Positions 9,001 to 21,788 of a stretch of DNA of 21,788 nucleotides are shown piece by piece (the first letter of the stretch is position 1; every line of letters starts with the position of its first letter). Source of the stretch: an archaeon (GTDB taxonomy: Archaea; EX4484-52; B79-G9); NCBI GenBank assembly GCA_043813875.1, contig JBDRKP010000025.1:1-21788 (forward strand), given 5' to 3'. Made by a program: the position numbers.

Positions 9001-12000
9001 TTTAAATGGTTGACATAAACATATTTGACATCGGTATGCCAGGATATCTAGAAAAAGGTACCGAACAATTGCACAAGACTCATACGGATTACAAGGTAAG
9101 TTTTCAGCAAATTAAAGATGCAAACGGCTATCCCAAGCAAAGAATAGATATTTCGAGATTATACGGAGAAATAACAAAGAAAATACTTTATGGCGAGATA
9201 TCTGCTTCTAAAAGAACACCATCTGAACTAGAAAGCGTATTTAGAGATTCAAACGGAGAGGTTGTATTCAGCGAAGTTAATGAGACACATACAACTGAAG
9301 CAGTCGGCTTTCTTAATCATCTTAAATGGTATGATGCAATTCTCAGAAATCACCCTTATGTTTCAGGCTATTCAGAAGAGGAAGCGATGTATCTTAACCC
9401 CACGCCTAACGAAGTGGTTATCCGAAATGTAGCAAACTATGGCAAGTCACCATTTGGCGAATACGGAATAGATACAGTCACCAAAAAGAAACGCACGTGG
9501 TTTGGGCCAAACAAGACAAGAATATCCTTTAGAGGCAAAAACCAGGCCAATGAAACTGTAGCACAAATCTGGAACCGTCCAGATCACATCGAGATAACAG
9601 ACCACACATATAAATTGATTGTACCAACCAGAGAGCTTTTTGAAGGATCAAAGTGGATAAAAGATCATCAAAAATTGTATAGCCTTCTTGTAGAATCGAA
9701 ACTTGGCGACGTACCATTTCCCCTCTTTTTGATTCTTAAGTCCTCCATTAACACAGGCATGGAAGCTTATCTCACGAAAGGCGGCAAGACAGATAAGCTG
9801 GTGGATTCACATCGTGATTTCTGTAATAAACACCAAATAGTGATGGGAAGAGCCACAGATTACATATCAGCTATCAACGATAATCTCAAATATGCAGTCG
9901 ACATGGAAGGCGAGTTGATAAATGCTACAAAATTTAACCCCATATATATAAAAAGAGCCATAGTGGACAACTTGCTAGGCGGAAAGCCTATAAGGTTCCA
10001 TGGCAAGCACTATGGCTTAAATACACTCACTCCAGCTGTAAAAAAGATAAATATTAAAGACCTCAACGAGGATGGCAGTTTGGGGGAGAATAAAGCAGAA
10101 TTCGAATTTTATCCATGGATATCATACAAAGATTTTATAAGCACTTTAAGCTTAAACAAGCCAAAAGAATATCTGTTTGACTTCAAGGATCTCGGATCTG
10201 AAGAAGGAAGAGATAAGCTATTCACCTATTTAGATGATAAAGGGAGCTGGCTATATTATCTGCGCTCGCGTGAGCAGACAAAAGATGAATGGCTGGAAAA
10301 TGCAAATTTCAGATTAGACGATAAAAATAACCGTCTTATTGTTACAAAAGATAAGACAAGAAAAGGAAGCTGGATTGATAGAAAAATCCGTAAAAAAGAC
10401 ACTATAACGACGAAAGATTATATCGGCACTTTTGAGATAAAAGATGACTCTCTCTTTTACTGCGGCAAAAAAAGAATCCCATTCAAGGTTGCAGACATAG
10501 AAAAGGTTAAGGATGAAAATAAGCAGACATACGGCAAAAAAGAGCCAGAAGAGAGTATAAAAGTATATACAGACGGCAAAGAAGAAGTAGGAGACATCAT
10601 AATCGAGAGAAAACTAGAAGAGAAGAGCACCAATTTATATCTGCTATTCAGGAAGAGCCACTTTGAAGATGGTCCTTTCTTATTTAGAGGAGCTATTGCG
10701 GCAATGGCTAATATGCAAGGACCATTAAGATTAAAGACAGATGAATGGAACTATCGCAGCGTGTATCACTTACCTGTTCCGCTCGAGTTGACTTTTGACC
10801 TTCTTACGATGATATTATATTCCGGAGACCCCGCGGTTTACGGCGAACGCAAGGTTGACATCAATAAAGTGTATGGAGGTCACAAACTTCAACCGTTCAA
10901 CGGTACAGGAAAAGTCGTGGACGAAAATATGACCCCTGATACTATCTATTTCTTAAGCCAGATATTCAAAGATAAAGTCACAGAAGAAGACATTGCCCCA
11001 TTCGTGAAATGGCTTGAACCGGATAAATCAGATATCGCTCCTAAGGTCGCGGCTCAGGCAGCGTAAATTGAATAATCGTCACACTTACGGATTCTGAAAT
11101 TCCATCGCAGCATTCATATCGATTTTTATAATATAACAATCAGCTTTTATTCATGGGCTATCATCAGAAGAACCATAGCAATATATCAATATATCGACAT
11201 ACAAAAAAACAAAAAAAAGAAAAGAATGAAGAAGAGCCATTTGCTGGCTCTCTTTTCACTCTCAGTCTTGGAGGGCATTTTTGTCCCCCAAGAGTCCCGG
11301 AATTGCCTCAACAATCTTGCTTGCATGCAAGATTGTATTTGGCACCTCCAGATTCCGATCTCTTGTAACGGCAACAGTCCTGCCGTTCCAGGAACCGATT
11401 TTAGCTATAACCGATTCCAAATCAGTCTCCTCAGGCACATACAACCTGATGATGTGGTGTCCCTTTTTGGACACTTTGATCCATCCTCCGGATGGAAGTA
11501 TCTTTATATCGTAGAGATACTTATTCTCTCCAAGGTATTTTTCAACCTCTTCGAGAATTAAAAATAGCAGGACACCATTTTCCCTGTTTTCGACAGGCTC
11601 GTGGATGAACTGCAATTGTTCACCGCCCACCAGTTCTGTCGATCTGGTGATCTGGTGCCCCTGGGCGAGTAGATCCGCCTTCCTCTCCGACGATATGTCT
11701 GAGATGCGGAAGAACCGGTTGCTTCTCTCCTCTATCTTAGGAGGCTGGAAACCGTCCAGATTTCCAAGAACCAGCTTCTGTACCATCGGCGATATGCCGA
11801 GATGAACCAGAACTGATCCAACACGCTTCTTCCAAAGAAGGGCAACTCCTGTCATGCCCTCTTTTCCAATGTCGATATCGTTCTCGATACCGATGGCATC
11901 ATAAACCTCACGGCTCACATTGCTGTAAATGAGAGCCGTACTCAAGTTCTTGAGTACGTCATAAAGTTTACGATCAATGAGATCCTGCGGGTTCTGCACC

Positions 12001-21000: not shown

Positions 21001-21788
21001 TTCTCAGAATGATACTCCTCACGGAGCGCCCTAAGCTCAGTCGTCAAAGCGATATTATCATGGAAACGCTGTATGAGCTCCTTTCTTTTCTGCTGGCGGA
21101 GCATGGAAATATGAAGCTTGATGCTTCTTAAGTCATCAAAATCAATGCATTTCGTAGCGAACAGTTCCTTGTCCTGTATATCGCCATCAATATCCTTGAT
21201 AATCTCCTCATGTATCTGGTTACGAAGCTCAACCGCCTTGCTGATCTCAGCAATCCTCTCTTCAAGAAATCCCACACGGTCAAAAAGATTGCCTATTATC
21301 TGCGAACCTGCGCATCGAAGCTGCCTGACCTCCTCAGGATCTTCCCTCGGAACAGCTTCCCTCTGCATGATCTTTATAGAATCAGGCACAATTTCAGGCT
21401 TTTCATCATCATCTATCTCGGCAACCGGACGATTGGCAATCTTATAGAGGAGCTCTTCTTTAGACGCATCCTTATACGTCCTTTCGATATTTTCTCCTTC
21501 ATAATCCTGCTTCATCTGCTCAGGAGTCTTGTGTGTCATATACTCCTTAGACCGTATATAATCGCGTTTTTTCTCCTTGTACATTATAACCATTCCTTAC
21601 TCATCATCTAAATGGGCGCGAAGTAAAGACACCCCAAAGGATTAGAACTTCAAAGTAACAATAACGATGTTTCTACCAACAAGTAACTTTATAAATGTTA
21701 CGCCAACGCCTATAATAATAGGGCAATGCCTGTGCATGGAGAAAACACATTGTAAATACATATTGTACATAATAGATAATACATCAGA

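Follow-up and report, generated by a model that had tools for sequence, protein, structure and literature searches.

The window, by which we mean the whole 21,788-nucleotide stretch of archaeal DNA analysed here, contains nine co-directional ORFs (g444-g452), all on the minus strand. Their coordinates bear out what an earlier note on this DNA had described, except that the last ORF starts at 21593 and not at 21584. The features to which we refer are as follows:

7326..11066, no strand: low-GC stretch with two orphan genes
7326-8765, minus strand: orphan gene of 479 aa, no family found
9006-11066, plus strand: orphan gene of 686 aa, no family found
11232..11252, minus strand: hairpin with T-rich tail, 10 bp past the g444 stop, likely operon end
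11262..13991, minus strand: g444, 909 aa, membrane-anchored P-loop ATPase
13996..14832, minus strand: g445, 278 aa, polytopic, candidate VirB6/TrbL-like channel
14834..15877, minus strand: g446, 347 aa, signal-like N-terminus and C-terminal anchor
15881..16207, minus strand: g447, 108 aa, two hydrophobic helices after a signal-like segment, candidate pilin by topology
16210..16551, minus strand: g448, 113 aa, architecture as g447
16562..16903, minus strand: g449, 113 aa from an internal start, architecture as g447, K/E-rich loop
17033..18454, minus strand: g450, 473 aa, first gene of the operon
18455..18788, minus strand: intergenic region of 334 bp, boundary of two transcription units
18789..20960, minus strand: g451, 723 aa, soluble ATPase of the HerA clade, C-terminal third variable
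20961..21593, minus strand: g452, 210 aa, coiled-coil-like partner of g451, its stop abutting the g451 start

A hydropathy rescan reproduced the topologies previously assigned, as did a Pfam search the values for g444 (AAA_10, 9.8e-5; FtsK, 0.012), g451 (DUF87, 1.9e-10) and g450 (PKD, 5.2e-8). The nine genes had been taken for a single cluster; we find two units, split by the 334-bp gap and different in their distributions. The genes g450-g444 (minus strand, from 18454 to 11262) form one tightly packed operon, read as such because the gaps among g449, g448, g447, g446, g445 and g444 are only 1-10 bp (66-129 bp between g450 and g449), most of the genes are preceded by a Shine-Dalgarno-like GGAGG motif and a hairpin follows g444. 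A second hairpin with a T-rich tail lies after g451 at 18545-18518, as detected by a scan for terminator-like sites whose consensus is of bacterial type and whose specificity is low (27 sites against 8.3 ± 2.9 expected). Inspection of 18455..18788 revealed an A/T-rich TATA-like box and then a Shine-Dalgarno-like GGGAGGTG ahead of g450, suggesting that this region holds a putative promoter of the g450 unit.

The products of g451 and g452 contain no hydrophobic segment. The DUF87 match of g451 exceeds the cut-off (41.6 bits), and its family profile retrieved HerA (4d2i, 5.8e-7) and defence-type HerAs from the PDB and neither VirB4 nor TrwB, while no Pfam family matched g452. As stated previously, g451 is present in 17 of the 42 genomes of the phylum, and g452 accompanies its homologue on all 15 loci fetched, adjoining it in 13 and lying 0.6-3.2 kb off in two loci of genus g12. 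In these relatives the pair is flanked on one side by PadR and a C39-like membrane protein and on the other by an 88-aa gene, glucose-6-phosphate isomerase and LeuRS. According to the earlier note, all nine genes would belong to a single Ced/Ted-like apparatus in which two ATPases cooperate, g444 membrane-anchored and g451 soluble, an arrangement that can be likened to CedB plus CedD or to TedB plus a neighbouring HerA. Although the two units lie side by side in this genome and point the same way, g451 weakly matches the NCBIfam CedD model (1.7e-13, 50 bits) and, by hhalign of its family profile, the VirB4 ATPase domain (probability 94%, E 1.3e-7), and the available text of PMC9905601 describes a HerA homologue as common in Ted loci, this reading is very unlikely and is largely refuted by distribution: g444 and g445 occur in 1 of the 42 genomes, and none of g444-g450 lies on any of the 15 g451 loci, where the neighbours are housekeeping genes. 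The gap between the units, with its hairpin and TATA-like box, also argues against it, as do a CedD score far under the 600-bit cut-off and best PDB relatives that are HerAs. Since g451-g452 is conserved as a pair without the membrane genes and g451 is HerA-like, one ATPase, g444, is left to the apparatus, and the caveat already voiced, that g451 may be unrelated to the membrane genes, was justified. We judge g451-g452 to be a separate conserved pair, a HerA-type ATPase with a coiled-coil protein, adjacent to the operon by rearrangement and not by function.

A VirB4-type P-loop_TraG ATPase is found in 2 of the 42 genomes of the phylum, and one genome, G038, provides a reference module (L049:9768-14419) with Pfam-recognisable components in the order pilin (T4SS_pilin, 3.6e-9), 6-TM VirB6-like protein, PrgI-like protein (2.5e-4) and VirB4 (P-loop_TraG, 6.4e-25). 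The g444 protein has hydrophobic segments at 22, 39 and 311, a Walker A motif (GESGSGKS) at 428 and a Walker B-like motif (LYLEEA) at 623. It is a sequence orphan with two relatives among ~15 billion proteins; the two homologue clusters noted before were found again, at 67% and 62% identity, and phmmer, run exhaustively over 1.84 billion representatives, returned no relative outside its own family. AAA_10 was the top Pfam match in all three family members (22 bits for g444, 24.7 and 33.5 bits), the cut-off of 27.5 bits being exceeded in P0003 only (33.5 bits), and in the window's own sequence no component of the module passes any curated family threshold. The top NCBIfam matches were VirB4_plasma and conju_CD1110 (E 0.003-0.006). 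In hhalign comparisons, in which the alignment to VirB4 spans the ATPase domain only, the g444 family profile scored E 5.9e-5 against seven clostridial VirB4 proteins (probability 65%, 121 columns) and E 0.0015 against the G038 VirB4 (284 columns from Walker A on), E 0.013 against the g451 family and E 0.36 against six coupling proteins (T4CP). Our own AF2 model of g444 was unusable (pLDDT 33.2). The ESM Atlas model (pLDDT 0.65) gave structure matches over 645-728 residues (TM 0.56-0.70) to VirB4/TraE/CD1110/PrgI-fused clusters, and all 10 of the Atlas matches listed carry AAA_10, P-loop_TraG or TraC-like domains. These alignments take in the region N-terminal to the P-loop, those to PrgI-fused proteins covering residues 1-777, and thereby offer a lead, from comparison of predicted models alone, to a possible VirB4 N-terminal domain in g444. 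Overall, Pfam, profile-profile comparison and the Atlas structure search support, but do not prove, assignment of g444 to the VirB4 class, and we read it as a VirB4-type ATPase that has diverged, carries a transmembrane hairpin of its own at the N-terminus (cf. VirB3-VirB4 fusions) and is extended at the C-terminus.

The neighbouring g445 product has about seven hydrophobic segments. Homologues of g445 (P0005 and P0006) are on contigs sized 110258 and 43498, equal to those bearing the g444 homologues, and the two genes are thus conserved together in two other assemblies (P0002/P0005 and P0003/P0006). By features, the nearest Atlas clusters to g445 were TrbL_4, TrbL_5 and TrbL_3 (0.91-0.93, with TrbL_4 and TrbL_5 at 0.93; 192-209 of 256 features in common). 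The Atlas structure matches bore no type IV secretion system (T4SS) family name, no PDB chain matched at E<=10, and hhalign against a 16-member TrbL_4 alignment was not significant (E 0.26). Against the protein in the VirB6 position of G038, g445 scored 23.0 (E 0.019), which tops all 60 control polytopic proteins by a small excess (maximum 21.3). We treat membership of the VirB6 class as a lead only, the nearness to TrbL/VirB6 being one of language-model features.

Each of the three small proteins g447, g448 and g449 has an N-terminal hydrophobic segment and two more; the g449 ORF extends to 16966 (16562-16966, 134 aa), with the internal start at 16903 giving 113 aa. Their description as paralogues holds weakly, for g447 and g448 (BLASTP E 0.003), and the other two pairs were not significant. 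When hhalign scores were set against 40 block-shuffles per pair, the observed score was reached by 0/40 for g447/g448, 1/40 for g448/g449 and 10/40 for g447/g449, and the C-terminal helix of g448 shows weak in-register similarity to both g447 and g449. Across the whole genome, small ORFs that encode a signal-like segment and two helices stand three in a row at only two places; the second, on another contig (C77), coincides with ORFs on the opposite strand and is probably spurious. The topology proposed for VirB2-type pilins was thus recovered, but no sequence or fold test supported that identity: neither the pilin families PF18895 and PF04956 nor any PDB chain matched g447-g449 at E<=10; scores against the G038 pilin (11.8-14.4) fell inside the range of the controls run (80 of 221; mean 12.0, maximum 21.3); and the AF2 model of g449 (three helices, pLDDT 59) gave generic helical matches only. 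Moreover, no orthologues of g447-g449 were found on the two foreign contigs carrying the g444/g445 homologues. We therefore regard g447-g449 as putative pilins by topology and position. The remaining two genes, g446 and g450, have hydrophobic segments at both termini and are predicted to encode two glycosylation-rich anchored surface proteins, with 13 N-X-S/T sequons in g446 and ten in g450. In addition to its PKD domain, g450 has a signal-like N-terminus, an acidic stalk and a weak match to Heimdall-CTERM (E 0.026, 14.9 bits against a cut-off of 24), while g446 matched no family in Pfam, PHROGs, NCBIfam or PADLOC and is a candidate adhesin or contact protein. A contact role for both would be consistent with their topology and position.

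The segment from dapF to g451 consists of the two orphan genes and g444-g450. Like the 686-aa orphan, g444 and, by profile, g445 were found in 1 of the 42 genomes, the window's own (G000); neither the orphan genes nor the module was found in the 41 others. The two orphans are missing at all nine dapF loci of relatives, and at all five same-genus loci that reach past dapF, a gene which in G000 lies on another contig (C59) follows dapF within one or two genes. The operon and the two orphans are therefore a strain-specific accessory segment at a synteny breakpoint.

Such a setting would also suit a mobile element, integrated or degraded, that exports its own DNA with g444-g450 as its core for transfer or egress; candidates are an archaeal ICE, a pT26-2-like plasmid and an element resembling a vesicle or a membrane virus. 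In that case g446 and g450 would act in contact or as spikes, the small proteins would belong to the envelope and g444 would pump or package DNA. In running from small membrane proteins through an anchored glycoprotein and a polytopic protein to an ATPase, the module may resemble pleolipovirus cores. The segment adjoins the low-GC orphan stretch (GC 0.374 against 0.438 for the genome), one of the two orphans has winged-helix-like matches, and the 686-aa orphan has a relative in a viral-contig record. Similar orphan membrane proteins and a VirB4/HerA-like ATPase form the pT26-2 core according to the available text of PMC6972569, and VirB4, VirB6 and VirB3 are carried by thaumarchaeal ICEs according to that of PMC6563490. 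However, no gene for an integrase, a tRNA, replication or a capsid and no att-like repeat is present in the window, PHROGs gave zero matches for g444-g450, tblastn of g444 against phages and plasmids was empty, as were viral-contig scans with g444 and g446, and 11262-18454 reaches only the 89th percentile of tetranucleotide distance to the genome. Furthermore, no read or contig that skips the segment was found and, because the contig stops 195 bp past g452, the far boundary of the segment lies unseen beyond its end. We consider a mobile element unlikely. An assignment of g444 to a membrane-associated anti-phage defence system (mad8/HerA/DndH-like, with membrane effectors) instead of secretion is extremely improbable, even though its best library match is the PADLOC defence-system ATPase model mad8 (E 8.1e-10 over 275 residues, 405-679), HerA-type ATPases act in several defence systems, as the PDB matches show, the segment is accessory and its locus variable, and the G038 T4SS module adjoins restriction-modification and AbiEii genes. 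The mad8 model matches g451 more strongly (7.2e-16), indicating that it picks up the generic FtsK/HerA ATPase core; no further PADLOC family matched g445-g450, the operon has no methylase, nuclease or Sir2/TIR-type effector, pilin-like proteins with signal peptides and glycosylated surface proteins are unexpected in a defence operon, and the Atlas structure matches listed for g444 are all conjugation ATPases.

The claim of a Ced/Ted-like T4SS thus gains support for g444-g450 and loses g451 and g452: g444 leans towards VirB4, g445 is nearest to TrbL/VirB6 and a T4SS module exists in G038, so that g444-g450 is probably a minimal T4SS-like (Ced/Ted- or Patescibacteria-like) accessory module. The G038 module shares with it the host phylum, accessory status and, along the minus strand, a small two-helix protein followed by a polytopic protein and then VirB4. 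It differs in that its proteins pass Pfam cut-offs (T4SS_pilin 37 bits, P-loop_TraG 88 bits), a gene of its own (296 aa) encodes VirB3/PrgI, the pilin gene is single, and genes for PKD proteins or glycoproteins are lacking; sequence similarity is marginal for both VirB4 (E 0.0015) and the polytopic protein (E 0.019). As described in the available text of PMC9905601, Ted and Ced each join a pilin to a VirB4-like ATPase and a VirB6-like protein of 7 TM helices and have no sequence similarity to each other; the Thermoproteales Ted system (TedA/TedB/TedC) has a small pilin whose signal peptide is cleavable and which contains two hydrophobic helices, often has a HerA homologue nearby, and is presented there without coupling protein or relaxase. 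The likeness of our module to Ted is one of composition and topology, without detected sequence similarity, and the module differs in the number of pilin-like genes (three against one), in two additional anchored surface proteins, in an ATPase with its own transmembrane hairpin and C-terminal extension, and in a distribution that is strain-specific and not order-wide. In Sulfolobales, the available text of PMC11868833 gives Ced as CedA, CedA1, CedA2 and CedB plus CedD and CedE, transferring chromosomal DNA without a relaxase; membrane-anchored HerA/VirB4-like ATPases (CedB and CedD), polytopic CedA and small two-helix proteins resemble our module, whereas the Ced pilins are unprocessed and the VirB4 N-terminal domain is split between the two ATPases. 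The NCBIfam CedD model matches g451, weakly as given above, and not g444.

Patescibacteria offer a further parallel in small genomes from groundwater-type habitats, where a T4SS derived from MPF-FATA has a VirB4, VirB3 and VirB6 core with arrays of divergent VirB2-like genes (PMC12102498, PMC12857230), the arrays comprising 2-11 genes at ~25% identity and mostly lacking a relaxase in the available text of PMC12102498. These systems are bacterial, recognised by curated HMMs and near-universal in the phylum, with VirB3 as a separate gene and no fusions reported there, in contrast to our module, for which pilin HMMs failed and which occurs in 1 of 42 genomes. The pT26-2 family core of Thermococcales and Methanococcales, similar by description of gene content in that it joins orphan membrane proteins to one VirB4/HerA-like ATPase, has been proposed to represent an unknown DNA secretion system, and differs as a set of 12 genes on an integrative plasmid with integrase and Rep, neither of which is seen here (available text of PMC6972569). 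In Nanohaloarchaeota, also small archaea, VirB4/TraG-like ATPases occur beside SPEARE giant proteins and are linked to large Ig-like surface proteins, an arrangement for which action on partner cells has been proposed (PMC10266531); there the ATPase domain is fused to the giant adhesin and no VirB6 or pilin is described, whereas in our module the PKD protein is a separate 473-aa gene.

Taken together, we put at roughly 0.58 the probability that the operon g450-g444 encodes a minimal, sequence-orphan type IV secretion-like apparatus on strain-specific DNA, including the following mechanism. The VirB4-class g444 would anchor itself through its N-terminal helical hairpin, as in VirB3-VirB4 fusions and CedB/CedD, and oligomerise at the cytoplasmic face, and g445, with seven helices and encoded 4 bp upstream of g444, would form a VirB6/TrbL-like channel above it. 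The small proteins g447, g448 and g449 would be exported by their signal peptides and kept in the membrane as two-helix hairpins, from which the ATPase may extract them to build a short pilus or stalk, as for VirB2, TedC and CedA1, while the glycosylated, anchored g446 and g450 would mediate envelope or partner contact. The substrate would most likely be DNA, passed between cells in contact; substrate and direction are suggested by topology and position. As a search that covered coupling proteins but not relaxases found none in this 91.5% complete genome, the module appears closer to Ced/Ted import and to the relaxase-less Patescibacteria T4SS than to the system of a self-transmissible plasmid, and it may serve this archaeon as a conduit to partner cells.

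The window is one entire contig of 21,788 bp from an assembly of 1.64 Mb in 90 contigs (91.5% complete), and nine minus-strand ORFs, g444 to g452, occupy its positions 11262-21593. Our own hydropathy and library scans reproduced the topology and the Pfam numbers that an earlier note had given for these genes. That note treated them as one cluster with two ATPases; we instead recognise two units, since the 334 bp between g451 and g450 hold a hairpin with a T-rich tail followed by an A/T-rich TATA-like box, and since the distributions of the two units differ sharply. Within the downstream unit g450 stands 66-129 bp ahead of g449, the spacing from g449 through g444 is 1-10 bp, GGAGG-type motifs lie ahead of most genes, and a hairpin with a T-rich tail directly follows g444. 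The gene for the 909-aa ATPase, g444, was found in 1 of the 42 genomes of the phylum (the source genome itself), as was the profile of the polytopic membrane protein g445, against 17 of the 42 for the 723-aa ATPase, g451. When 20 window proteins were compared by tblastn with 15 loci carrying g451 homologues, g451 and its partner g452 were present at every locus and the other 18 proteins, g444-g450 included, at none. The doubt already voiced, that g451 may not belong with the downstream membrane genes, was well founded: the neighbouring HerA-type ATPase that gives the locus its two-motor appearance is part of an unrelated conserved gene pair.

g451 carries a Walker A motif at residue 119 and VIVLEEA at 332, has a variable C-terminal third, and matches DUF87 with 41.6 bits against a cut-off of 23.2 (E 1.9e-10). 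A profile of the 12-member g451 family matched HerA 4d2i in the PDB (5.8e-7), followed by HerAs of the defence type, and at E<=0.01 neither VirB4 nor TrwB was listed; the family gave only a generic match to the VirB4 ATPase domain and E 0.059 with an alignment of coupling proteins (T4CPs), and a strong match (E 2.5e-27, hhalign probability 99.8%) to a 1052-aa protein of another genome of the phylum (G016). By its sequence, g451 belongs to the HerA clade of ATPases and is soluble. Its partner g452 is a coiled-coil-like protein of 210 aa without family. The gene for the 1052-aa relative (locus L050, G016:C30, 1015-6868) comes immediately after that for a 666-aa dynamin-family GTPase and precedes one whose product has a weak ABC-3C MC5 match, so that in one genome a member of the g451 family seems to stand in a defence island. 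In three genomes of the same genus (G005, G004 and G006; loci L017, L045 and L021) the contig breaks off inside the g451 homologue, at residues 435-657, and a separate 169-aa ORF on G006:C167 matches g451 residues 523-703 only, at 38% identity; in this type of ATPase the last third of the sequence seems to vary, or to be heterogeneous among strains, and to break assemblies. Elsewhere in the source genome (contig C75, 8452-20116) a 652-aa HerA-type ATPase (DUF87 3.1e-38) stands beside a co-directional row of some ten genes for proteins of 150-580 aa, all with a single N-terminal hydrophobic segment; this row may be an archaeal type IV pilin-like array. This ATPase was rejected as a coupling protein, its match to PF02534 covering the P-loop only (model positions 15-82).

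In relatives, the g451-g452 pair is flanked on one side by a PadR regulator and a C39-peptidase-like membrane protein and on the other by an 88-aa gene, glucose-6-phosphate isomerase and leucyl-tRNA synthetase; in the source genome these neighbours sit on contigs C28 and C80. On the left flank of the window, synteny as far as dapF is retained in 2 of 9 dapF loci, and in all five same-genus loci reaching past dapF a gene of about 394 aa comes next or next but one, the copy of which in the source genome is at C59:1896-3083. Because the neighbours that dapF and g451-g452 have in relatives lie on other contigs of the source genome, the DNA at window 7.05-18.8 kb is specific to the strain and lies at a synteny breakpoint, and the g452-g451 pair came to adjoin it through rearrangement. 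This segment contains g444-g450 and two orphan genes in a low-GC stretch:

Window 7050-11150: low-GC stretch (GC 0.374 against 0.438 for the genome) with two orphan genes in divergent orientation, encoding 479 aa and 686 aa

Neither orphan has a family, PDB or phage match (PDB sequence search at E<=5-10; the 686-aa protein by tblastn against phages). Among viral contigs, one record very close to this genome codes for a relative of the 686-aa protein, which suggests that a piece of this contig, or else a close relative of the contig, has been filed as viral. No att-like direct repeats flank the segment, and no integrase, tRNA or Rfam family was found in the window, which ends 195 bp beyond g452. 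In another genome of the phylum (L035, G001:C65, 5665-6996) the g452 homologue has an rve-type integrase-like gene and part of an IS110 transposase immediately upstream, which points to insertion around the g451-g452 pair in more than one genome. Window 3119-3697 codes for a 192-aa MtrA-like protein (Pfam MtrA 6e-43) beside a dCTP deaminase, with no other Mtr subunit in the window. DNA of the organism is present in groundwater metagenome runs, and no RNA run was listed among the sequencing runs checked. Contig pieces from three groundwater runs and one soil run (200-600 bp, depth 2-5, patchy coverage) include none that bridges the segment junctions and no joint that skips the segment; since the best-matching runs may be source samples, these pieces are not independent support.

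Recognisable VirB4-type genes are rare in the phylum, P-loop_TraG detecting them in 2 of the 42 genomes. One of these, G038, carries a module on one strand that served as a comparison:

L049 (G038:C25) 9768-19977, one strand: T4SS_pilin (146 aa, 3.6e-9), a 316-aa 6-TM protein, a PrgI-like protein (296 aa, 2.5e-4) and an 802-aa VirB4 (6.4e-25), with genes for an N6/N4 DNA methylase, the specificity subunit of a type I RM system and an AbiEii toxin alongside

Its sister genome G037 gave no P-loop_TraG match. In view of the 2/42 distribution and of these neighbours (methylase, specificity subunit, AbiEii), T4SS modules are best regarded as sporadic accessory genes in the phylum. The window module follows the same logic as that of G038 and is far more diverged.

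In sequence, g444 is an extreme orphan. A word-based search of 5.8 billion clusters returned two relatives, P0002 (67%) and P0003 (62%), and P0003 was the sole one in an exhaustive phmmer search of 1.84 billion representatives; plasmid, phage (tblastn) and viral-contig searches were empty. A related-loci search of metagenome, genome and viral contigs found no true relative, and one candidate locus (L005) proved to be a spurious 48-residue match in a bacterial MAG. The protein has hydrophobic segments at 22, 39 and 311. A Walker A motif (GESGSGKS) at 428, a Walker B-like motif (LYLEEA) at 623 and a match of its P-loop region to FtsK in the PDB (E 0.003-0.03) show that it contains a P-loop core of the FtsK/HerA superfamily. 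AAA_10 (PF12846) was the top Pfam family in all three members of the g444 family; against a cut-off of 27.5 bits, g444 (22 bits, E 9.8e-5) and P0002 (24.7) fall under and P0003 (33.5) over. The NCBIfam models VirB4_plasma and CD1110 reached E 0.003-0.006 only, PF19044 (P-loop_TraG) had no match in the source genome at E<=1e-5, and BLASTP of g444 against g451 was not significant.

For profile-profile comparison by hhalign, reference sequences came from clostridial genomes, out of the conjugation clusters that surround 16 TrbL_4 genes, and their identity was checked by Pfam, giving a VirB4 group (P-loop_TraG/AAA_10, group A, 7 sequences) and a T4CP group (T4SS-DNA_transf, group B, 6 sequences); an AAA_10 search of 151 clostridial genomes at E<=1e-20 had returned 3 hits only and was left unused, the TrbL_4 neighbourhoods supplying the VirB4 references. 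The g444 family matched the VirB4 group at E 5.9e-5 (probability 65%, 121 columns), compared with 0.36 for the T4CPs and 0.013 for the g451 HerA-type family (12 sequences). It matched the G038 VirB4 at E 0.0015 over 284 columns, and the latter, as a positive control, matched group A at E 7.8e-39 over 533 columns. In this comparison g444 is nearer to VirB4 than to coupling proteins or HerA, by a modest margin and with shallow profiles; hhalign gave no match of g444 to the VirB4 N-terminal domain. Our own AF2 model of g444, built from a 3-sequence alignment, was unusable (pLDDT 33.2). The ESM Atlas holds a model of g444 itself (pLDDT 0.65), and all ten structure rows listed for it carry AAA_10, P-loop_TraG or TraC-like, with names that include TraE, the VirB4-like CD1110 family, 'PrgI family' fusions and archaeal proteins of ~1000 aa commonest in Nanobdellota. 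These rows superimpose on the g444 model with TM 0.56-0.70 over 645-728 aligned residues, starting at residues 1-75. As a comparison of predicted models with each other, this provides a lead that g444 may have the full VirB4 architecture with a fused membrane hairpin.

Encoded beside this VirB4 candidate, with its stop 4 bp before the g444 start, g445 is a polytopic membrane protein (5 or more helices; about seven hydrophobic segments). Its homologues are P0005 (58%) and P0006 (55%). Judged from equal contig sizes, P0002 and P0005 share a contig of 110,258 bp and P0003 and P0006 one of 43,498 bp, so that the g444-g445 pair would be conserved in three assemblies. By Atlas features, the nearest clusters of g445 are TrbL_4, TrbL_5 and TrbL_3 (0.91-0.93; 15 of 30 hits in the first set), and the nearness to TrbL_4/TrbL_5 (0.93) is a lead to a VirB6-like role. 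The Atlas structure rows for g445 include no T4SS name, Pfam gave no TrbL hit at E<=1 and the g445 profile found nothing among PDB chains at E<=10. In hhalign, g445 did not match the 16 TrbL_4 proteins significantly (E 0.26), a test without power because the protein at the VirB6 position of G038, run as a positive control, also failed it (E 0.048). Compared directly with that protein, g445 scored 23.0 (E 0.019, 112 columns), above all 60 control polytopic proteins run of 71 available (maximum 21.3, mean 15.0, sd 2.5), which lends marginal support to g445 as VirB6-like.

The small proteins g447, g448 and g449 each have an N-terminal hydrophobic segment plus two more, and hydropathy and alignment give a common layout of signal-like segment, helix, polar K/E/D-rich loop and second helix (g449 most likely starting at an internal ATG at 16903, for 113 aa). 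This predicted architecture, small with a signal peptide, two hydrophobic helices and a polar loop, fits VirB2, TedC and CedA1. The three had been described as paralogous pilin-like proteins: the signal and two-helix topology stands, and the paralogy among them is weak. An AF2 model of g449 with its paralogues (pLDDT 59) has helices at 3-37, 41-74 and 81-112, and searches by Foldseek against the PDB and by VIA-align returned generic helical folds only, with no conjugative pilin among the matches listed. The pilin families PF18895 and PF04956 do not reach g447-g449 at E<=10 in a whole-genome scan and are absent at E<=1 in the Pfam scan. Against the Pfam-positive pilin of G038 the three scored 11.8-14.4, with controls at a mean of 12.0 and a maximum of 21.3 (80 of 221 run). 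The pilin profile found no PDB chain at E<=10, and a three-protein profile search of 1760 candidates at E<=10 recovered only the window's own three, with no orthologues elsewhere. A VirB2-type identity gains no support from the PF18895/PF04956, G038 pilin and PDB sequence searches, and because every homology test was negative or inconclusive, we infer a pilin role from topology and position. The three-gene array resembles those of Patescibacteria, where divergent VirB2-like pilin arrays of 2-11 genes at about 25% identity are described (PMC12102498). A second genome-wide run of small three-segment ORFs, on contig C77, overlaps plus-strand ORFs and was set aside. The surface proteins g446 and g450 both have N- and C-terminal hydrophobic segments and are rich in N-X-S/T sequons (13 and 10, respectively; 0-4 in the other genes), and g450 matches PKD at E 5.2e-8. 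The C-terminus of g450 (window 17033-17140) has a PGF-like motif, a hydrophobic helix and an Arg-rich tail, with a weak Heimdall-CTERM match below cut-off (E 0.026), and this suggests a sortase-type surface anchor.

Overall, we favour, at a probability of about 0.58, the reading that g444-g450 encode a minimal T4SS-like machine, in which g444 would be a self-anchored VirB4-class motor, g445 a VirB6-like channel, g447-g449 three pilin-like subunits, and g446 and g450 two contact proteins. The proposal of a Ced/Ted-like T4SS is in this way retained for g444-g450, on the VirB4-leaning g444 with g445 beside it, and given up for g451-g452; an apparatus of all nine genes with two ATPases is very unlikely. 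No VirD4-type coupling protein was found in the source genome (91.5% complete; whole-genome search with PF02534), which makes Ced, Ted and the Patescibacteria system, and not plasmid conjugation, the closest functional counterparts of the g444-g450 module. Relaxase families are absent from the library-scan matches of the window proteins, although no search aimed at relaxases was made, and archaeal conjugative plasmids are likewise described without recognisable relaxases (PMC12857230).

The main rival, which we regard as rather unlikely, invokes a mobile element of the pT26-2, ICE or membrane-virus type, either degraded or unseen, whose transfer or egress core g444-g450 would form. Such an element is favoured by the low-GC orphan genes and by a location that is strain-specific and at a breakpoint, but it would lack an integrase, Rep or capsid gene, and the virus and plasmid searches were empty. 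Least probable is a role of g444 as the ATPase of a defence system. PADLOC mad8 is indeed its strongest single library hit (E 8.1e-10), but mad8 matches g451 more strongly (7.2e-16) and no other PADLOC MADS model matched any of the 11 proteins scanned; a MADS system was rejected, a mad8-like ATPase being present without the other mad genes (methylase, nuclease and others).

T4SS-like systems of archaea already in print include Ced (PMC11868833), Ted (PMC9905601), thaumarchaeal ICEs (PMC6563490), pT26-2 (PMC6972569) and pNOB8 and pT33-3 (PMC12857230), and VirB4 has been reported beside nanohaloarchaeal SPEARE proteins (PMC10266531). In the literature listed for DPANN type IV secretion and Altiarchaeota VirB4 we saw no description of the present family; the supplementary tables of PMC12102498 and PMC9905601 may list archaeal VirB4 or pilin families. 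What is new here is a three-member orphan family in which a candidate VirB3-4-type fusion, extended at its C-terminus, goes with a triple array of pilin-like proteins and with dedicated surface proteins. It is a doubtful further step to see in it the archaeal equivalent of the T4SS of Patescibacteria (a core of VirB3-4 fusion and VirB6 without relaxase, a divergent pilin array and dedicated adhesins), through which a groundwater archaeon of small size would take DNA or other molecules from its neighbours; if true, a three-member family would have diverged past every curated T4SS model, and more such systems would be hidden among archaeal orphan genes. The adjacency of g451-g452 is a caution for annotating by gene neighbourhood. 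Archaeal T4SS-like DNA-exchange machines are known from few lineages (Ced, Ted, Sulfolobus and Thermococcus plasmids, thaumarchaeal ICEs) and have almost no sequence similarity to each other. If the g444-g450 module is truly T4SS-like, it would add a lineage invisible to curated models, in a small-genome groundwater archaeon, would bring together in one system a VirB4 that anchors itself, an array of several pilins and surface proteins of its own, and would offer a concrete starting point for understanding DNA exchange by such archaea or their contacts with cells nearby.
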